Translations under genes and position numbers: made by a program | Shown here: positions 7,013-13,012 of the stretch, piece after piece | How positions within the stretch are numbered: the stretch's first letter is position 1 | How the letters are laid out: each line of letters opens with the position of its first letter | Assembly (NCBI GenBank): GCA_050302495.1 | Contig: JBNLBP010000001.1 | Coordinates: forward strand, 255,269 to 268,280 | Source of the DNA: Candidatus Pacearchaeota archaeon | Lineage (GTDB): Archaea; Nanobdellota; Nanobdellia; Pacearchaeales; GW2011-AR1 | Direction of reading: 5' to 3' | Length of the DNA stretch: 13,012 bases | The notes under the pieces: model-generated | Database searches by the model: none | What the model was told of the DNA's origin: nothing | Seen by the model: the letters and a program-made list of their open reading frames with translations, nothing else

Positions 7013-8412
7013 ACATATCTCTTCATTTCCATTATTTGGTGTACTTCTTCTGAAAGAGTTGGACGTATTTTTTTTATTAGGAATTTTCTAAATGCTTTTG
7101 GATCTTTTTCTTTCTTTTTGTTTTTTACTTCTTTTATTCTGTCTATAAATAGTGCAACCACCATTATGCTGGATATAGCACTTATTAGGAATATTATCTT
7201 TATTGGAGATACTATTGTTGGATCTATGAATGTTATAAGGAATGCCCCAACTATTCCTCCAAGGAAGATTCCAATTCCCATCATCATATTGAAATATGAT
7301 ACTGCAACACCTCTTTTTTCTTGAGATACATTGTCATATATGAAATTTCCTGAGGAAAGGTTAAATCCTGCCCAACCTATTCCCCTTACGAGTCCAGGGA
7401 CGAGTATAAGATATATTAATGAAGTGTCTAGGATCCATAGTATTGGAATTATTGGAATTAATATCATTGTTATTGCAAGGACTTTATAATTTCCGTATTT
7501 GTCTGCAATTTTCCCCCAAATTTCTGTTACTAGTAACGAGAAGAATGTTGCAGATAACAGAATTAATATATAGTTTGAATAACTCATATTTAGTGTCCTT
7601 AAGAGATAAACCGCTAATAGTGAGTTTGCAATTGTAACTGTAAACGAAAAGAATAACCTAAATATTGAGAACTTTCCAAAATTGGTTTTTGGAGCTTTCA
7701 TAATGAATTCAATAAATGAAAAATGCTTTCCTGGCTTTATTTTTAATTTGGGCTCGTATTCTTTTTTAAATATGCTATAACAGATAATTCTTGTGATGAA
7801 TGCTAGGGAAAATAGTGTTATGAAACCGATCATTGCCATTTCATTTTCTTTCATATACTCTAAGAAATAAGATGCGCCTATTGTTAGAACTAGTAGAGTA
7901 AATCCTACTAGAAGGTTTCTTTTTGCAAACCATCTGCCTCTGTATTTATCACTTACAATATCTCCTGTCCAGGAAAACCATCCTGGAACAATTAATCCAA
8001 AAAATATGGTATATACAGAGAAAAATAGTATGAACATTGCAGGGAGTATTTCCTTTAGTACATCCTTTATGAATAAGATGCTTATTATTATGAAAGATAA
8101 CCAGGTTATAGACTCAAGTAGAACTCCTTTTGTTACCACCTTTTTTCTTGTTTTCTTTTCTATAAGTTTAGATCCAAATATTTGGGATAACGGGCCCAAT
8201 AATCCTGTAATCGAACTCATTATTGCAACAAGCGAATTACTTGAATTTATTGCAATGGCAAATGGAGAGAGGTATTGTACACCGAATGAATTATTCGCGG
8301 ATGCAAATATTCCTTCTTTTATACTGAGGTTTCTGGCCTTTTGTTTTATCGTTTTCATTCTTTTCTTTTCGATTAATTCTGCCTCTTTTTTTGTTAGTTT
8401 TTTATTTTTCAT
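7000..8412 (-). CDS. MFS (major facilitator superfamily) transporter
   Basis: 470 aa with ~12 hydrophobic helices in a 6+6 arrangement and a central loop. A motif-A-like sequence GRWFAKRNLL follows TM2. The ~60-aa charged C-terminal tail is cytoplasmic-looking. It overlaps the upstream TrmB-like gene by 11 nt. Confidence 0.8.
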   Translation of the reverse strand: MKNKKLTKKEAELIEKKRMKTIKQKARNLSIKEGIFASANNSFGVQYLSPFAIAINSSNSLVAIMSSITGLLGPLSQIFGSKLIEKKTRKKVVTKGVLLESITWLSFIIISILFIKDVLKEILPAMFILFFSVYTIFFGLIVPGWFSWTGDIVSDKYRGRWFAKRNLLVGFTLLVLTIGASYFLEYMKENEMAMIGFITLFSLAFITRIICYSIFKKEYEPKLKIKPGKHFSFIEFIMKAPKTNFGKFSIFRLFFSFTVTIANSLLAVYLLRTLNMSYSNYILILLSATFFSLLVTEIWGKIADKYGNYKVLAITMILIPIIPILWILDTSLIYLILVPGLVRGIGWAGFNLSSGNFIYDNVSQEKRGVAVSYFNMMMGIGIFLGGIVGAFLITFIDPTIVSPIKIIFLISAISSIMVVALFIDRIKEVKNKKKEKDPKAFRKFLIKKIRPTLSEEVHQIMEMKRYVWKK

Positions 8413-9121: not shown

Positions 9122-9240
9122 ATTGTTTGTTGGAAAATCTAGCTTTTAAAATCTTCTAATATGTGGTGAATTGTATCACCTCATAAATTAATTAACAAAT
9201 ATTTTATCTTAGATATAACTAAATTGTGGGAGGACAAAAA

Positions 9241-9717
9241 ATGGAATACGAAAATAAGGTAAGGAAATTGGTAGCACTAAATGATCTTAATGTGCCTCTA
9301 AGCGCTTTACATAAACGTGCATACAGAAAATCAAAGAATCTTGCGTCTAACATAGAGCGTGGTTTTGATAAAAGTAAGGATTTTGGATCTTCAATTGTGG
9401 ACGTTGTTTATGAAAATCAAGGTAAGTCTAGAGAATTGAGATCTGCTATAGATGAATTTAGTTCGAAATACCCTAACCAAGGAAGGCATTTGCAGAGACT
9501 TATTTCTGTTAATAGGGCGTCTAGAGAGATGTATTTGAACTATGGTATTAGATCAGATGATTCAATTAGTGATGAAGAGTATATATCTGTTATGAGAGAT
9601 ATTGGCCTTTCAGATACTCACGCTAGGGAACTCTATCCAACACTAGTAGACATATCTGATACCATGAAGGAAAAGAGTGGTTTGAGAAGTATTTTGATAG
9701 GCCATAGTGCCTATTAA
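9241..9717 (+). CDS. Hypothetical protein (158 aa), compositionally atypical, with a strong Shine-Dalgarno
   Basis: I chose the ATG at 9241 over the TTG start at 9226 given in the ORF track. GGGAGGA at 9229-9235 lies 6-7 nt upstream. Codons are noticeably GC-richer (cgt, gcg, agc) than in neighbouring genes. The protein (MEYENKVRKLVALNDLNVPLSALHKRAYRK...) has no motif I recognise. Confidence 0.55.
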   Translation: MEYENKVRKLVALNDLNVPLSALHKRAYRKSKNLASNIERGFDKSKDFGSSIVDVVYENQGKSRELRSAIDEFSSKYPNQGRHLQRLISVNRASREMYLNYGIRSDDSISDEEYISVMRDIGLSDTHARELYPTLVDISDTMKEKSGLRSILIGHSAY

Positions 9718-9762: not shown

Positions 9763-11607
9763 ATGACAAATAGATTTTACGTTACAACCCCTATATACTA
9801 TCCAAATGACATCCCCCATATAGGCCATGCATATACAACTATAGCGGCAGATGTCCTTGCGAGATGGAATAGGTTATTGGGAAAAGATGTTTTCTTTTTA
9901 ACTGGAACTGATGATCATGGTAAGAAAATTGAGAGTATTGCTAAAGAAAAAGGTCAAAAACCTAAAGAGTTTATTGATAAGTTAATTCCTAAATTTAAGG
10001 ATGCTTGGAAGAAATTAAATATTGATTATGATTATTTTATAAGAACTACTGATAAAGCGCATGAAAAAGTGGTTCAAGAAGTTCTCCAGAAAGTTTATGA
10101 CAAAGGAGATATTTACTTGGGAGATTATGAAGGGTTTTATTGTACTGGATGTGAGGCGTATTATACAGAAAAAGATCTTGAAGATGGAAGTTGTCCGATA
10201 CATAAAAAACCCGTTGAGGTTTTGAAAGAGGAAACTTATTTCTTTAAATTGAGTAAGTATCAGAAGAAGCTTTTAGATTTGTATAAGAAGAATCCAGAAT
10301 TTATTTCTCCTAAAAACCGTTCAAAGGAGATAATAAATAGAGTTGAAGAAGGATTGAAAGATTTGAGTATTTCTAGGACTAGTTTTGACTGGGGTATAAA
10401 ATTGCCTTTTGATAAGAAACACATAGCATATGTTTGGTTTGATGCTCTTTTGAATTATTATTCTGCTACTAGATTGAAAGGAAAAGAAAAATTCTGGCCG
10501 GCAGATGTTCATTTGATTGGTAAAGATATTATTTGGTTCCACACTGTTTATTGGCCTGCTATGTTGCTTAGTGCAGGAATTGAATTGCCTAAGAAAGTTT
10601 TTGCACATGGATGGTGGACTTTTGATAACGAAAAGATTTCAAAGTCTCGGGGAAAGGTAATAAATGTAGACGAACTTATAGGTATTGCAGGTGTTGATTC
10701 TGCAAGATACTTCTTGCTTAGAAATACTGCTTTTGGAGATGATGGTGATTTCTCAGAACAAGTTTTGATTGATAGACATAATAATGAATTGGCAAATAAA
10801 TTAGGCAATTTAGTTTCTAGAGTTTCTGGTTTAATTGAAAAGAATGGATTTGAAAAAACTTCAAATAAACTTTCTGACAAATTAAAATTAAAAGAAATTG
10901 AAAAATTGTTTGTTGGATGTGAATTTGATAAAGTTCTTAATGAGATTTTTGCCTTTGTAGATATTTGTAATGAGTATACTCAAAATAAAAAACCTTGGGA
11001 AACTAAAGATGGAAAGGTTTTGTATGAATTGGCGGATTCAATAAAAGCAATTGCAATATTACTTTGGCCTTTTATCCCAGAAACTTCAGAGAAGATTGCA
11101 AGGCAATTTGGATTTAAGATTGATTTAAAAGAATTGAACAAACCTTTAAGCGATAAGGTAAAAATAAAGAAAGGAACTGTTTTGTTTAATAAAATTGAAG
11201 TTAAGAAAGAGGAAAAAACTAATAAACCTAAGAATAATTCTAAGAATAGTAAAATTGAAGGTATTATGAATATGAGTGAGGCTAATTTTTCTGATTGGGA
11301 GAAACTTGATTTAAGAGTAGCAGAGATAAAAAAAGTAGAAGAGATTGAAGGGGCTGATAAGCTGTATAAATTGTCTTTAGATGTTGGAGAACTTGGAGAG
11401 AGAACTATTTGTGCTGGAATTAAACAATTTTATTCTAAAAAGGATCTTAAAGGTAAGAAAATAATTTATTTTTCTAATTTGAAACCTAGAAAGATGAAAG
11501 GTGTTGAAAGTCAAGGTATGTTGTTAGCCGCATCTACTGGAGACCATAGTGAAGTTATTTTGATTTCTCCAGAGAAAGATATTGATAATGGGGCAAGAAT
11601 AGGTTAA
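9763..11607 (+). CDS. metG: Methionyl-tRNA synthetase (class I) with C-terminal EMAP/Trbp111-like tRNA-binding domain
   Basis: HIGH motif: PNDIPHIGHAYT. KMSKS motif: KISKSRG. Zinc knuckle: YCTGCEAYY...GSCPIHKKP. The C-terminal ~110 aa (DLRVAEIKKVEEIEGADKLYKLSLDVGE...) form an OB-fold tRNA-binding appendix. I chose the ATG at 9763 (MTNRFYVTTPIYY) over the upstream TTG at 9745 in the ORF track. Confidence 0.93.
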   Translation: MTNRFYVTTPIYYPNDIPHIGHAYTTIAADVLARWNRLLGKDVFFLTGTDDHGKKIESIAKEKGQKPKEFIDKLIPKFKDAWKKLNIDYDYFIRTTDKAHEKVVQEVLQKVYDKGDIYLGDYEGFYCTGCEAYYTEKDLEDGSCPIHKKPVEVLKEETYFFKLSKYQKKLLDLYKKNPEFISPKNRSKEIINRVEEGLKDLSISRTSFDWGIKLPFDKKHIAYVWFDALLNYYSATRLKGKEKFWPADVHLIGKDIIWFHTVYWPAMLLSAGIELPKKVFAHGWWTFDNEKISKSRGKVINVDELIGIAGVDSARYFLLRNTAFGDDGDFSEQVLIDRHNNELANKLGNLVSRVSGLIEKNGFEKTSNKLSDKLKLKEIEKLFVGCEFDKVLNEIFAFVDICNEYTQNKKPWETKDGKVLYELADSIKAIAILLWPFIPETSEKIARQFGFKIDLKELNKPLSDKVKIKKGTVLFNKIEVKKEEKTNKPKNNSKNSKIEGIMNMSEANFSDWEKLDLRVAEIKKVEEIEGADKLYKLSLDVGELGERTICAGIKQFYSKKDLKGKKIIYFSNLKPRKMKGVESQGMLLAASTGDHSEVILISPEKDIDNGARIG

Positions 11608-11612
11608 TTTTG

Positions 11613-11650
11613 TTAGGTGCTGTTTTGTAGAAATAGCATTAAGTGCTGTT
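11613..11650 (+). repeat. Tandem 12-nt direct repeat TTARGTGCTGTT x2 immediately downstream of the metG stop
   Basis: TTAGGTGCTGTT at 11613-11624 and TTAAGTGCTGTT at 11639-11650 (11/12 identical, 26-nt spacing). These overlap GTTAGGT (11612-11618) and GTTAAGT (11648-11654), which match the GTTRRRY consensus. Confidence 0.5.
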
Positions 11651-11730
11651 AAGTCGCCCCGAGCCGATAGGCGAGAGCGCAGCGTGGTCGAGGCGAAGCC
11701 GAAGAAGTTTTGGGACGGAGGCAATACATC
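11651..11730 (+). repeat. GC-rich repeat copy A (diverged family with copies B and C)
   Basis: GTCGCCCCGAGCCGATAGGCGAGAGCGCAGCGTGGTCGAGGCGAAGCCGAAGAAGTTTTGGGACGG...TACATCAGCAG is about 65% GC in a ~30% GC genome. It contains a TCGCC/GGCGA hairpin and a GGC-GAA-GCC mini-hairpin followed by TTTT. It shares GGCGAAGCCGAA, TTTTGGG-CG and TACATCA with copy B. It shares CCGAGCC-RAWAGGCGAG with copy C. Confidence 0.6.
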
Positions 11731-11739
11731 AGCAGTATA

Positions 11740-11749
11740 TTTATAAATA
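11740..11749 (+). promoter_or_regulatory. TATA-box-like element for the downstream hypothetical gene
   Basis: TTTATAAATA lies ~24-33 nt upstream of the ATG at 11773. A GAAGGG purine tract lies 5-10 nt upstream of the ATG. Confidence 0.4.
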
Positions 11750-11772
11750 ATTTTTAATTCTTGAAGGGTAAT

Positions 11773-12273
11773 ATGTTAAGTGAATTAGAGCAAGAAGTTG
11801 TGGATAGTCATAAGGAAGGGTATTTTGGGGCATATATACAAGGGTCATGGTTTGAATATTCTGAATTACAGGAACAAATAGTTAGTGGAGAGTATCCAGA
11901 ATCATCAAGATTACAAGAAGCAAATAAAAAAATGAGTGGATGGAAAAAGGGGTTTGATATTACTTATTTACATTCATTGCCTCGTGCTGAAATTAATCCA
12001 TTACAAGTAGAACAAGAGGCATGGAAATTATTATCTCCAAATATCAAACAATATCTTAATGAATTCGGAACATATCTTGAAGGATATTCTCCCCAAAATG
12101 CGGATAGAGAACAACTTCTTGTTCATGTGAATTGGGGATGGAATTTACTGCAACAGTGGAATACCATTTCTAATTCATACAAAGCAAAGTATGACAAAAA
12201 TTGGTCATCAATTCCAGAAAGAGAGGAAGCCACAAGACAACTTATTCAAGAATTATCCTCTAAAAAACCGTAG
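11773..12273 (+). CDS. Hypothetical protein (166 aa), W/Q-rich, compositionally atypical
   Basis: I chose the ATG at 11773 (MLSELEQEVV...) over the TTG at 11761. The codon usage is GC-richer than the housekeeping genes, and the protein has a high Trp/Gln content (WFEYSELQEQ, NWGWNLLQQWN). There is no motif I recognise. It is flanked by repeat copies A and B. Confidence 0.5.
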   Translation: MLSELEQEVVDSHKEGYFGAYIQGSWFEYSELQEQIVSGEYPESSRLQEANKKMSGWKKGFDITYLHSLPRAEINPLQVEQEAWKLLSPNIKQYLNEFGTYLEGYSPQNADREQLLVHVNWGWNLLQQWNTISNSYKAKYDKNWSSIPEREEATRQLIQELSSKKP

Positions 12274-12292
12274 TCTCAAAATTGCACATAAT

Positions 12293-12400
12293 TCCTGTTA
12301 TATCCGTCGGAGTGAAACGGAGACCGAAGGTTAGTGCAACGTTCGGCGAAGCCGAAACCCGAAGAGTAATTTTTTTGGGCGTTACATCAAGAACGAAGTT
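12293..12400 (+). repeat. GC-rich repeat copy B, between the convergent genes
   Basis: CTGTTATATCCGTCGGAGTGAAACGGAGACCGAAGGTTAGTGCAACGTTCGGCGAAGCCGAAACCCGAAGAGTAATTTTTTTGGGCGTTACATCAAG contains a perfect TTCGGC-GAA-GCCGAA hairpin (12342-12356) followed by T7 (12371-12377). It is in the same orientation as copies A and C. Confidence 0.6.
12342..12377 (+). terminator. Hairpin + oligo-T; possible bidirectional terminator within repeat B
   Basis: A 6-bp GC stem with a GAA loop is followed 14 nt later by TTTTTTT. It lies between two convergent genes. Archaeal termination uses oligo-T tracts. Confidence 0.3.
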
Positions 12401-12436
12401 CCATTAAATAAAAGAATAAAGGGCAAGAAGAAACAT

Positions 12437-12856
12437 TTATTGTTGAGCTGGTAAATCATACTCAAATACTGGTCGTCCACTTTCTCGGAATTCAGCAGTT
12501 TCTCTCATTGATTGTTTTCCACCGCCAACTCTTACAAGAACATCAAGTGATTTTAAGAATGTTGGACTTTCGTCTCCCCATTCATTTCCAACAATCTGTT
12601 CTTCATCAACAGGAAAACAATCATGATCTTTAGCTTTAGAACAAGCGACACCAACGGTTCGCCAATCTCTAGAAACTGCTTCTCTATATGCTAATGCTGG
12701 AATTCCGAGGTCTGTTAGACCAGAAACAACTGCTTTTGATTTTCCAGCGTATTGACTATCAATAGTATCATATGCGTCCCTCAGCATTCTTACAGCTTCA
12801 GGTTCATCAAATTTCTGAGCTGAGTAACCTACAACTCCGATTTTTATTTCGTCCAT
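12437..12856 (-). CDS. SLOG-superfamily (DprA/LOG-like) Rossmann-fold protein, ~140 aa
   Basis: The preferred start is ATG at 12854-12856 (MDEIKIGVVGYS...). A TTTATATA box at 12881-12888 would then lie ~25-32 nt upstream. The ORF-track N-extension to 12904 would put this TATA box inside the CDS. Three motifs support the assignment: a beta1 Gly-rich segment IGVVGYS; VVSGLTDLGIPALAYREAV, which resembles the DprA SGxAxGIDxxAHxxAL motif; and RVGGGKQSMRETAEF, which resembles the LOG PGGxGTxEE motif. The gene is GC-richer than the genome. Confidence 0.5.
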   Translation of the reverse strand: MDEIKIGVVGYSAQKFDEPEAVRMLRDAYDTIDSQYAGKSKAVVSGLTDLGIPALAYREAVSRDWRTVGVACSKAKDHDCFPVDEEQIVGNEWGDESPTFLKSLDVLVRVGGGKQSMRETAEFRESGRPVFEYDLPAQQ

Positions 12857-12880
12857 GATACTATTGTAACTATTGAGTAG

Positions 12881-12888
12881 TATATAAA
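12881..12888 (-). promoter_or_regulatory. TATA box for the SLOG-like gene (leaderless-type spacing)
   Basis: Plus-strand tatataaa corresponds to TTTATATA on the minus strand, 25-32 nt upstream of the ATG at 12856. Confidence 0.45.
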
Positions 12889-12924
12889 TGTTTCTGTTGC
12901 CCAATCACTATTTAGCCCAAAAAA

Positions 12925-13012
12925 ATTATTGGATATAACCGTTGTTCGAAGACCGAGCCAAAAGGCGAGGCACGAGCTGAAGTCCACAGACTTCCTCGTG
13001 AGTTGAAATTTG
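12925..13012 (+). repeat. GC-rich repeat copy C (truncated by the window end)
   Basis: GGATATAACCGTTGTTCGAAGACCGAGCCAAAAGGCGAGGCACGAGCTGAAGTCCACAGACTTCCTCGTGAG. CCGAGCCAAAAGGCGAG aligns with copy A's CCGAGCCGATAGGCGAG, and ATATAACCGT aligns with copy B's TTATATCCGT. It contains a 12-bp imperfect hairpin with a 2-nt bulge and a CACA loop: CACGAG-CT-GAAGTC(12971-12984) [CACA] GACTTCCTCGTG(12989-13000). Confidence 0.55.

Follow-up and report, generated by a model that had tools for sequence, protein, structure and literature searches.

Integrons are the textbook platform for gene capture and shuffling, and they are defined by an IntI integrase together with attC sites. Co-oriented arrays of sites, typically with one small gene per unit, characterize integrons, including archaeal integrons and CALINs (PMC9668308), and archaeal IntIs possess the IntI-specific domain (Ghaly et al. 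2022, PMC9668308). The window analysed here, a stretch of 13,012 nt, contains an arrangement of the same kind: downstream of metG lie three co-oriented GC-rich elements (A, B and C) with one small gene in each interval. We estimate a probability of about 0.7 that this locus, in a DPANN archaeon (Woese-, Pace- or Nanoarchaeota type), is the distal end of an integron-like array whose mobile cassettes hold one gene each. In this array, A, B and C would all belong to a single family of folded recombination sites. According to this proposal, an XerA-like tyrosine recombinase, encoded beyond the last unit and behind a primary site reading TAAC followed by AACTATTAAGCGAGATAAATGTTCGCTTAATAG, would exchange strands at the core of the folded, probably single-stranded, site (between TAA and C, or between G and TTA on the other strand). 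Cassettes would be excised as circles and then reinserted.

It also seems somewhat probable that the locus belongs to a widespread, previously undescribed DPANN analogue of integrons. Such a system would combine an XerA-like recombinase, a primary site, arrays of self-promoted single-gene cassettes and multi-branched sites of 130-300 nt, each with an AAC/GTT-closed hairpin, a 21-nt GC core, GAA mini-hairpins and an outer stem formed only when the cassette ends meet, as in a circle. Searching the literature on DPANN, XerA and integron-like cassettes, we found canonical integron work only and no published description. If the proposal is true, folded-DNA cassette capture arose, or was retained, outside the IntI clade. 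A parallel Xer-type platform in tiny, symbiotic DPANN archaea would untie folded-site cassette recombination from the IntI innovation.

The proposed array downstream of metG

A DPANN host is supported by the TBP, L15e, ATP-dependent ligase and TrmB genes in the window. The relatives of its metG come from DPANN MAGs, and metG orthologues were collected from 80 DPANN loci. metG is the core gene bordering the array, and its stop codon TAA lies at 11605-11607. The short GC-rich islands of the window are only a tRNA, one intragenic site and elements A, B and C, which are all on the + strand, 640-650 nt apart. A cassette array of the proposed type would account for such GC-rich islands, and for small orphan genes beside housekeeping genes such as metG, in genome annotation.

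Read on the + strand, a full unit of the family opens with C-ATC, X, a branched variable region, X' and T. It continues with box 2 (GTTAnnnnn), hairpin 2, the 21-nt core, a GAA-loop hairpin and GAAGAAGT. Then come P0a (about 13 nt) and a gene with its own promoter, in either orientation. The unit closes with P0b (the reverse complement of P0a), ATT and box 1 (the reverse complement of box 2, ending in TAAC, with the cut expected between TAA and C). On the opposite strand this matches the plan of an integron cassette, starting with TTAnnnnn and ending with R''(..TAAC)-L''-loop-L'-G, where R' is completed by the next unit or, if the unit is circular, by its own first bases. The features of the window are as follows.

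9763-11607, + strand: metG (methionyl-tRNA synthetase with C-terminal tRNA-binding domain; Pfam tRNA-synt_1g 1e-107, tRNA_bind 4e-28)
11613-11624, + strand: copy 1 of a 12-nt repeat, TTAGGTGCTGTT; 5' arm of a local hairpin, outside the family consensus
11616-11640, + strand: weak AT-rich hairpin GGTGCTGTTTT-gta-GAAATAGCATT (DNA fold -4.1 kcal/mol, z=-2.1)
11639-11650, + strand: copy 2 of the repeat, TTAAGTGCTGTT; 3' arm of the L stem (X', variant ..AAGTGC), linker T and start of box 2
11648-11656, + strand: box 2 of element A, GTTAAGTCG; invariant GTTA plus 5 cassette-specific bases
11654-11674, + strand: hairpin hp2 of A, TCGCC-CCGAGCCGATA-GGCGA (helix 3 of the family alignment)
11673-11693, + strand: near-invariant 21-mer core, GAGAGCGCAGCGTGGTCGAGG, also in L050
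11692-11708, + strand: hairpin hp3 of A, GGC-GAA-GCC (GAA triloop), then conserved GAAGAAGT (helix 4)
11709-11722, + strand: P0a of cassette 1, TTTGGGACGGAGGC; its first 8 nt pair with 12273-12280
11773-12273, + strand: cassette 1 gene, 166 aa, no recognisable domain; TATA-like box at 11741-11750
12273-12291, + strand: right end of cassette 1, with P0b GTCTCAAA, ATT and a box 1 remnant GCACATAA
12292-12434, + strand: element B, a diverged subfamily member (by blastn), with a 3' extension to about 12434
12297-12305, + strand: box 2 of element B, GTTATATCC
12303-12321 and 12342-12356, + strand: hairpins of element B, the second being hp3, TTCGGC-GAA-GCCGAA
12361-12367, 12367-12380 and 12381-12387, + strand: 3' motifs of element B, namely GAAGAGT, P0a TAATTTTTTTGGGC and GTTACAT
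12437-12856, - strand: cassette 2 gene, 139 aa, running against the array direction; weak SLOG-like matches
12915-12939, + strand: right end of cassette 2, with P0b GCCCAAAAAAATTA (12915-12928), ATT and box 1 GGATATAAC (12931-12939)
12940-13012, + strand: start of element C, the 5' domain of a full-length site (CG-TTGTTCG-AAG..., ending ...CCTCGTGAGTTGAAATTTG); the window ends inside C

Element B, which reaches only E=0.056 by sequence profile alone, was recognised by blastn (89% identity over 100 nt to L191; 95-96% to L112 and L179 in its 3' extension; also L091:28-164). Element C has the same syntax as the sites in L112, L089 and L143 (..CCTCGTGAGCAAAATTTGGG) and is matched by L136 and L091 in blastn (profile E=0.068). 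TATA-like boxes precede both cassette genes. The cassette 2 protein matches Pfam LDcluster4 at 5e-5, under the curated cutoff, and PADLOC gave no match for either cassette protein or for ORF 9226-9717. Look-ups of identical proteins for the two cassette products, metG and L15e gave no match either. The window ends inside the array and so includes neither the recombinase gene nor the primary site.

Folding of the repeat family

Exact copies of the 21-mer core were found in at least 120 metagenome contigs, nearly all low-GC among the matches listed; a family gathered by an exact 21-mer from metagenome assemblies carries an ascertainment bias, and some contigs may be chimeric. A scan of viral contigs for the 21-mer gave zero matches. 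Homology between family members is limited to about -170 to +150 nt around the core and the flanks beyond are unrelated. A solitary copy lies in L050, between the L15e and rubrerythrin genes.

The family sites are structured, GC-rich and multi-branched, 130-300 nt long, and their structure covaries. In 28 full-length copies, standard pairs occupy 90.3% of the cells, as opposed to 75.3% in shuffled controls (0 of 500 reached the observed value) and 34-48% in slid controls, and compensatory changes were seen at 25 of 35 pairs. The family stem comprises a TAACA/TGTTA closing stem, a 2-nt bulge and an 11-bp covarying L stem, the X and X' halves being non-complementary in L081, L100b, L117 and L182. 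The hp3 stem covaries family-wide while its GAA loop is kept. The GTT of box 2 is invariant across the alignment, and so are three single-stranded stretches (the 21-mer, GAAGAAGT and ATTTGGG). The 21-mer may have a role in the recombination site. With its 21-mer, its GAA mini-hairpins and its circle-dependent outer stem, such a site would offer biochemistry a well-defined DNA substrate that is unusually rich in information.

The sites partly resemble integron attC: an imperfect hairpin is closed by invariant AAC...GTT cores, its inner stems covary and it has bulged bases, and box 2 corresponds to the reverse complement of the attC R'' box. They differ from attC by their size and multiple branches, and by the extra 21-nt GC core, the GAA-loop hairpin and the outer P0 pairing of about 13 bp. 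Moreover, the R-L spacer, of about 5 nt in attC, is here 1 nt plus the 2-nt bulge. The boxes often deviate from RYYYAAC (AATTAAC and ATATAAC, for example), and when 10 attC sites with experimental validation were used to build a covariance model, it gave no significant match on the elements (best 12.1 bits, E=1.5). Inspection of the sequence led us to reject a canonical attC in A or B, on either strand, as there is no intra-element RYYYAAC...GTTRRRY palindrome and the partners lie at opposite cassette ends. Current integron finders would miss the system because the integrase filter and the attC model both fail.

A covarying multi-hairpin architecture is also what a structured non-coding RNA would show. 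The elements could be a 3'-UTR or terminator module, a regulatory RNA or an RNP scaffold, with the two 12-nt repeats in its 5' stem and no recombination involved. This would fit the strong covariation, the GC-rich islands within an AT-rich genome and the invariant single-stranded stretches, and the hairpin at 11616-11640 forms as RNA an 11-bp stem with G.U pairs, more stable than as DNA. However, Rfam 15 returned no match at E<=1 for A, B, C or seven family loci. GCGAAGC-type GAA mini-hairpins are unusually stable DNA hairpins, which counts against the RNA explanation. Two narrower RNA candidates were also discarded on inspecting the sequence: C/D-box and H/ACA readings of ..CTGATGTA.. and the ACA motifs (no D box and no pseudouridylation pocket), and a group II intron domain V suggested by the resemblance to GAGCCGA (the matching helix is absent). 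We consider an RNA function improbable, also in view of the array properties described below.

Cassette ends, mobility and the linked recombinase

Adjacent elements are co-oriented in 40 pairs and opposite in 1, at spacings that cluster between 565 and 1040 nt, and a single ORF is found in 25 of the 32 intervals shorter than 2.5 kb. The genes of these single-gene units show no orientation bias, 13 running with the array and 12 against it. The elements thus keep their orientation regardless of the neighbouring genes, which speaks against an RNA. Classical integrons mostly carry promoterless, co-oriented ORFs read from Pc, whereas the genes here are randomly oriented and have their own promoters.

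The ends of each unit are complementary. When P0a and P0b were compared for exact reverse-complement matches, the median length of the longest match was 13.5 nt for the two ends of one cassette and 7 nt for 860 mismatched controls. Box 2 and the following TAAC box are complementary at all 9 positions in 17 of 29 cassettes, as opposed to 5.7% of controls. Likewise, the first bases of an integron cassette complement its own R'' box, as expected for circles cut between G and TT. Pairing across genes that often lie on the opposite strand is a further point against an RNA module. In the window, cassette 2 satisfies both end rules perfectly, its P0b being the exact reverse complement of 12367-12380 and its box 1 that of box 2 of element B. 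Cassette 1 breaks the box 1/box 2 rule (GTTAAGTCG vs GCACATAA) and obeys the P0 rule over only 8 bp, 7 Watson-Crick pairs and 1 G.T as read from the sequence. Its right end is a short-form junction in which TAA is fused to TTCC-TGTTA, and this junction (TAATTCCTGTTA) recurs in the family.

Evidence of mobility comes from L128 and L190, which have in common a 1108-nt unit with 99.6% identity in unrelated flanks. On the left, identity starts at the junction of TAAC and ATCGG; this edge is not clean, since the elements are nearly identical between copies, and its position is fixed only to a range of about -135 to +45 relative to the core. On the right, identity stops exactly after ..CAACTAAC, and the next elements then differ. 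This TAAC edge is the one clean breakpoint among the cassette-sharing contigs. A second cassette, common to L138 and L192, is bounded by long and short site variants. That identical units recur between unrelated flanks and break off exactly at TAAC is again at odds with a non-coding RNA. Cassette movement would provide a concrete mechanism for the patchy accessory genes of reduced DPANN genomes.

Mobility could instead reside in the elements themselves, as non-autonomous MITE- or PATE-like derivatives of a single-strand transposon of the IS200/IS605 type that insert 3' of TAAC, the genes between them being ordinary chromosomal genes. The target of IS608 is TTAC, and the fixed 4-nt left flank TAAC is reminiscent of it. 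As in REP/BIME, MITE and PATE families, the repeats are hairpin-rich (with subterminal hairpins), GC-rich, intergenic and dispersed in unique flanks, they show an orientation bias, which would suit lagging-strand insertion, and the L050 copy is solitary. In families of this kind, autonomous copies have a linked Y1 transposase or TnpB, and the element moves without its neighbouring genes. Here, the moving unit contains a gene in both shared pairs, and its far end complements its own box 2 and P0a in a cassette-specific manner, which a small MITE would not impose. There is no recurrent transposase cluster among the 535 ORFs of the family contigs, where a tyrosine recombinase is the only recurrent enzyme, and arrays terminate at a conserved site beside it. 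We thus hold transposition of the elements alone to be quite improbable.

That recombinase is the largest protein cluster in the family contigs (10 proteins in 9 loci) and its gene is always downstream of the last element, on the same strand. The primary site, nnnnnTAAC followed by AACTATTAAGCGAGATAAATGTTCGCTTAATAG, precedes the start codon of the recombinase by about 100 nt in the L113/L150 locus and in all seven of the loci L201-L207 described below, and variants occur in L082, L143 and L140. The site carries an inverted repeat (CTATTAAGCGA..TCGCTTAATAG), with arms of about 12 bp around a 6-9-bp centre, and cassette junctions fall 2-3 nt outside this palindrome. A tyrosine recombinase beside a primary site at one array end is a further likeness to integrons, although the primary site has no sequence similarity to known attI sites. 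The linkage was tested independently on 7 loci fetched by recombinase homology alone (L201-L207): all 7 carry a TAAC site followed by AACTATTAAGCG.., and in L203 two upstream cassettes obey both end rules with diverged cores. Linkage of arrays to a recombinase and a conserved terminal site is likewise not what a structured RNA would predict.

The best NCBIfam match of the recombinase is XerA_Arch (NF040815), at 208-243 bits for a cutoff of 220. The integron-integrase model TIGR02249 aligns in two stretches (about 4-178 and 238-313) at 187-216 bits, under its cutoff of 265. In contrast to integron integrases, the protein lacks the IntI-specific domain around patch III, an insertion of about 40 residues. 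Homologues number 1537 across DPANN, the best 120 of the 1537 at 68-100% identity, and the enzyme could be the housekeeping XerA of these genomes. It is possible, though less likely than not, that the arrays exploit Xer/dif in the manner of IMEX or Acinetobacter pdif modules, with a housekeeping XerA resolving dimers at its own upstream palindrome and cassettes accumulated beside dif. The XerA-type score, the missing insertion, the high conservation in DPANN and the dif-like shape of the site next to the array all agree with this, and Xer is known to use a folded, hairpin-type site, the attP of CTX phage. A dif site is a duplex with two inverted arms of about 11 bp around a central region of about 6 bp, in which exchange takes place. 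Against this alternative, the junctions are at TAAC and not at the centre of the palindrome, and the internal sites are long covarying hairpins instead of 28-bp duplex dif copies. The arrays consist of numerous small cassettes, every one of which has a large site with a conserved structure, and they contain no phage or plasmid genes. The sites are co-oriented, whereas those of pdif modules alternate. This alternative and the integron-like cassette array differ chiefly over where the enzyme came from and what it should be called, rather than over how the cassettes work.

The two 12-nt repeats beside metG

The sequence-only reading had called attention to a pair of direct repeats between the metG stop codon and the GC-rich element A, and the pair is there: copies 1 and 2 are 11/12 identical and start 26 nt apart. 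As a bare repeat it is no rarer than chance, since the window holds 5 such 11/12 pairs at spacings of 12-50 nt and first-order Markov simulations predict 4.7. A post-hoc pattern test (2 matches vs 0.18 expected) is circular because the pattern was derived from the two copies themselves. Both GTTRRRY matches noted in that reading exist, GTTAGGT at 11612-11618 and GTTAAGT at 11648-11654, but they do not occupy equivalent positions: the first is the 5' edge of copy 1 and the second the 3' edge of copy 2.

It had been suggested that the copies are paired protein-binding sites, either like DR1/DR2 of attI or an operator, in which case they would mark the primary insertion site of the array. With class 1 attI the locus has in common a GTTRRRY-type core at the junction of fixed DNA and cassettes, with repeated GTTA motifs nearby, here as two direct matches where the core gene meets the array. 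In addition, TAA-TTTT-GTTAGGT at the metG stop loosely resembles the short family junction TAA-TTCC-TGTTAnnn. L010, whose metG is 80% identical and which has no array, keeps TTAGGTGCT 10 nt after the stop codon; copy 1 might therefore be an ancestral target sequence. This 9-mer was counted 9 times in 3.5 Mb (1.73 Mb read on both strands), which is close to the chance rate, and in L010 it may mark the ancestral flank. Relatives without the accessory genes have no tandem motif after metG, and L010 alone has the single TTAGGTGCT.

Several results make this use of the repeats very unlikely. In addition to the chance-level repetition and the different registers, no other family member has copy 1, which is unique to the metG locus, and the stretch 11580-11650 has no homologue among 200 loci. 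Besides, TAATTTTGTTA has 5 further occurrences in the loci, none beside an element. The metG junction is the distal array end, not the attI end, because the recombinase is always at the other end where it is seen. Thus, unlike DR1/DR2, these repeats are unconserved and far from the recombinase, and the recombinase-proximal site has an inverted, not a direct, repeat. The operator version fares no better, as the motif was not found at other promoters. The hairpin at 11616-11640 occupies the slot of the 5' domain (hairpin 1 and L stem) of full-length members. For 11608-11640, a degraded 5' domain or a short-form junction (TAA-TTTT-GTTAGGT) is a suggestive assignment. We take this only as a lead because TAATTTTGTTA recurs 5 times without an element. 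Coming back to the cassette array, site A, abutting metG, would have lost its normal 5' half (box 1, X and the branched region) or never had it, and copy 1 would be a locus-specific sequence that pairs with the bases immediately 5' of copy 2.

Copy 2 has a different standing. Judged by its alignment with the family, it is non-random through homology and not through repetition. The profile alignment of element A begins at 11639 (11639-11712, E=2e-20), and AAGTGCTGTTA of copy 2 recurs in L188, L168, L134, L100 and L165 at an equal distance from the core. In the fetched loci, which total 1.73 Mb, there are 6 occurrences of the motif ARGTGCTGTTA, 5 of them 28-32 nt upstream of the 21-mer; at the metG locus the distance is 31 nt. 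Copy 2 contributes the 3' arm of a covarying stem and the invariant GTTA box, and would be the L' arm and GTTA box of the terminal site A. The suggestion that the repeats form the 5' end of the repeat element thus stands for copy 2. The idea of an integron crossover survives in that an attC-like family has its invariant GTTA box at GTTAAGT of copy 2, but the observed breakpoint is at TAAC (box 1) and not at GTTA. Element B opens, as had also been noted, with the related CTGTTATATCC (12295-12305).

The two 12-mers downstream of metG

The metG stop codon (11605-11607) is followed by two near-identical 12-mers, copy 1 and copy 2, and then by the first of three GC-rich islands, so that the copies do lie at the boundary where the sequence-only reading placed them. 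The only other short GC-rich islands of the window are the tRNA-Ile gene and one intragenic site.

Features of the metG 3' flank
Copy 1: 11613-11624, + strand, TTAGGTGCTGTT
Weak hairpin: 11616-11640, + strand, DNA -4.1 kcal/mol, z=-2.1, higher stability as RNA; its 5' arm is copy 1
Copy 2: 11639-11650, + strand, TTAAGTGCTGTT
Island A: about 11650-11735, GC-rich
Island B: about 12296-12434, GC-rich
Island C: 12931 to the window end, GC-rich

The copies are identical at 11 of 12 positions and their starts are 26 nt apart, as described. The GTTRRRY matches attributed to them also exist (GTTAGGT, 11612-11618; GTTAAGT, 11648-11654), but copy 1 has its match at the 5' edge and copy 2 at the 3' edge. 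At spacings of 12-50 nt, the window has 5 direct-repeat pairs with 11/12 identity and simulated sequences have 4.7; the pair is real but, as a bare repeat, ordinary and not significant. A pattern test giving 2 against 0.18 is circular, because its pattern was taken from the two copies.

Copy 2 has an identity of its own. The fetched loci (1.73 Mb) contain ARGTGCTGTTA six times, and in five cases a near-invariant 21-mer follows 28-32 nt downstream, as in the window. This 21-mer is the core of the repeat family to which A, B and C belong, and the alignment of the family profile to the window starts exactly at copy 2 (11639-11712, E=2e-20). In terminal site A, copy 2 supplies the L' arm (..AAGTGC), linker T and GTTA box. 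Consequently, the fallback of the sequence-only reading, that the motif belongs to the repeat element's own 5' end, holds for copy 2. Upstream of it, site A is without box 1, X and the branched region of a full-length site, and the weak hairpin stands there instead; no homologue of this stretch was found anywhere in the loci searched. Copy 1 could be a chance match, what is left of a site that has decayed, or part of the ancestral flank.

Besides its archaeal-type metG, the window has genes for TBP, ribosomal protein L15e, TrmB and an ATP-dependent DNA ligase. The 80 best metG loci in species-representative genomes come mostly from DPANN MAGs (Woese-, Pace- and Nanoarchaeota; top identity 83%). 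Neither the tandem motif nor GC-rich elements were present 3' of metG in any close relative inspected, most of which have a convergent gene there. L010 (80% identity) alone has a single TTAGGTGCT, 10 nt past the metG stop, and it is this sequence that raises the ancestral-flank option for copy 1. TTTAGGTGCTAAA is found 3' of metG in L010 (L010:11790) and also, in L087 (L087:7258), upstream of a different class I tRNA synthetase gene; this could be coincidence, or a small regulatory or terminator motif common to both. In many DPANN (L014, L016, L018, L021, L024, L029 and others) the metG orthologue matches only residues 1-478 of the window protein, the C-terminal tRNA-binding domain being absent or encoded separately, the latter seemingly in L004.

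A family of structured repeats

Scanning metagenome contigs with GARAGCGCAGCGTGGTCGARG matched at least 120, and all but two among the matches listed are low-GC. The exceptions, L084 and L125 (66-70% GC), carry the 21-mer pattern inside apparent coding sequence, probably by chance and outside the family. Similarity between copies is limited to about -170/+150 nt of the core, with unrelated flanks, and no Rfam family matches the elements. A homologue of A, sharing an exact 16-mer with it, is a solitary element in the syntenic locus L050 (L050:6148-6290), between L15e and a rubrerythrin gene. The oxidative-stress genes between DNA ligase and L15e differ in these two loci: the window has SOD, DUF7670 and a small rubrerythrin-like gene, and L050 has desulfoferrodoxin and rubrerythrin.

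On the window + strand, a full-length site reads ATT-nnnnn-TAAC (box 1), ATC, X (about 11 nt), AAGT, a variable and often branched hairpin, ATTTGGG, hairpin 1 (loop usually GAGCCGA), X', T, GTTAnnnnn (box 2), hairpin 2, the 21-mer, a GAA-triloop hairpin, (C)GAAGAAGT and P0a (about 13 nt); beyond P0a come a GTTACAT-like motif and another GAA hairpin. The pairings TAACA/TGTTA and X/X' leave a 2-nt bulge. Across 28 distinct copies, standard pairs fill 90.3% of cells of the proposed structure, against 75.3% in shuffled copies (0/500 as high) and 34-48% in slid controls, and 25 of 35 pairs show compensatory changes.

Short forms without the inner part are TAAC-ATCGG..CC-TGTTA and TAA-TTCC-TGTTA. 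Element B, a diverged member of the second type, is 89% identical over 100 nt to L191, and its 3' part 95-96% to L112 and L179. The syntax of element C is that of a full-length copy's 5' domain, interrupted by the window end. In full-length sites of L081, L100 (second copy), L117 and L182, X and X' are non-pairing arms of different variants, which suggests exchanges inside the site; the conserved stretch of ATTTGGG and hairpin 1 is one place where they could occur. L193 and L179 have their 5' domain joined straight onto the 21-mer core. The interior of the family's 5' domain (..GAGAGCTGGAGCGAGG..) is similar to the core itself. A weak likeness to the hairpin-1/box-2 stretch at 7505-7541, inside an MFS transporter gene (GCAATTTTCCCCCAAATTTCTGTTAC; profile E=0.19), is probably due to chance.

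Cassette units and their ends

Of 41 pairs of neighbouring elements, 40 are co-oriented, and spacings cluster at 565-1040 nt. Intervals below 2.5 kb hold a single ORF in 25/32 cases, 13 in the same and 12 in the opposite orientation. The ends of a unit correspond: P0a recurs reverse-complemented just ahead of the ATT-nnnnnTAAC of the next element. For P0a and this recurrence (P0b), the longest exact match has a median of 13.5 nt inside cassettes; 860 mismatched controls give 7 nt (95th percentile 10). In 17/29 cassettes the far-end nnnnnTAAC reverse-complements box 2 exactly, against 5.7% of controls. Cassette 2 of the window, the SLOG-like gene unit between B and C, obeys both rules perfectly.

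End pairs of cassette 2
Box pair: GTTATATCC, 12297-12305, with GGATATAAC, 12931-12939
P0 pair: TAATTTTTTTGGGC, 12367-12380, with GCCCAAAAAAATTA, 12915-12928

In cassette 1, between A and B, the P0 pairing covers 8 bp (11709-11716 with 12273-12280) and the box 1/box 2 match is absent.

Contigs L128 and L190 share a 1108-nt unit (99.6% identity) between unrelated flanks. Identity begins at TAAC|ATCGG and stops exactly at ..CAACTAAC|, where the next elements differ. The right edge is a clean breakpoint; the left is ambiguous because the elements themselves are almost identical between copies. Another cassette is common to L138 and L192; the site after it is full-length in one of these contigs and short in the other.

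A (T/G)AGTAGTA motif lies beside TATA-like boxes in the window (12863-12890) and, downstream of the 3' extension, in many family loci; for example, GAGTAGTATATAAA reverse-complements the TTTATATACTACTC that precedes the SLOG gene. The motif looks like a lineage-specific promoter element common to cassette genes. L034:9094-9456, immediately upstream of metG, is a DNA homologue (69% identity) of the SLOG-like gene (12437-12856, - strand); the same accessory gene therefore lies on metG's other side in another DPANN genome.

The recombinase and related systems

The largest protein cluster of family contigs is a tyrosine recombinase (267-293 aa, 9 loci), always encoded 400-1000 nt downstream of the last element on the same strand. 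It has the Pfam Phage_integrase catalytic domain and an N-terminal SAM-like domain. Of the NCBIfam models, XerA_Arch fits it best (208-243 bits against a cutoff of 220); its alignment to the integron-integrase model is split in two by an absent insertion and scores below cutoff. The recombinase may be the cell's own XerA. The stretch from the last TAAC to its gene contains a conserved site, TAAC|A(A/C)CTATTAAGCG..CGCTTAATAG.

As an independent test, we searched for recombinase homologues (1537 across DPANN, the best 120 of them at 68-100% identity) and fetched contigs for five irrespective of the repeat. In 7/7 recombinase-fetched loci, nnnnnTAAC|AACTATTAAGCGAGATAAAT(A/G)TTCGCTT.. precedes the start codon by about 100 nt. 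In L203, two upstream units with diverged cores obey both end rules (P0 pairs of 12-13 nt; box pairs GTTAGGCGT with ACGCCTAAC and GTTATATGA with TTATATAAC).

Read on the opposite strand, a family unit starts with TTAnnnnn and ends ..nnnnnTAAC-A-L''-loop-L'-GAT-G, which is how an integron cassette is organised when the cut falls at G|TT. The archaeal integrons described by Ghaly et al. 2022 (PMC9668308) have IntIs with an IntI-specific domain and canonical attCs of 60-100 nt. A covariance model built from ten tested attCs of that study and run on the window and 11 family loci found nothing significant there; its best match (12.1 bits, E=1.5) lays R''-L''-L'-R' on a family element in flipped orientation. 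The DPANN array therefore appears to work much like an integron but departs from the class on two points: the IntI domain is missing, and the canonical attC model gives no significant match. It differs also in random gene orientation, site size, the extra conserved core and the outer stem. DPANN arrays likewise resemble Xer-exploiting elements, but differ in cassette junctions that lie outside the palindrome beside the recombinase gene.

The integron-type interpretation of the 12-mers was right in kind for copy 2, but wrong in its DR1/DR2 analogy, attI identity and crossover position. The metG junction is not an attI: wherever seen, the recombinase is downstream of + oriented elements, so this junction is the array end far from it. 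The cassette platform around the 12-mers appears to be a new variant and deserves follow-up; every mechanistic step past sequence geometry is inferred. We found no published description of this platform in the non-subscription literature.

Some recombinase loci show further peculiarities. L113:13982-14605 is a 207-aa ORF in which an HD-domain-like N-terminus is followed by the last ~70 residues of a tyrosine recombinase (LRHSFATHL..LLGH..Y); it may be chimeric, or a second recombinase gene that has decayed. The recombinase gene that closes the three-cassette array of L091 (L091:2197-2999) is broken by a stop or frameshift, either as a pseudogene or through assembly error; this locus is otherwise window-like, with a B-like element (28-164) and a pre-TAAC segment, TTAGCCCAAAAAATTATTG, similar to window 12913-12931. 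In L201, an IS240-type DDE transposase gene (L201:10807-11562) lies directly downstream of the XerA-like gene, and the recombinase has family elements on both sides, far upstream at 3825 and downstream at 17385.
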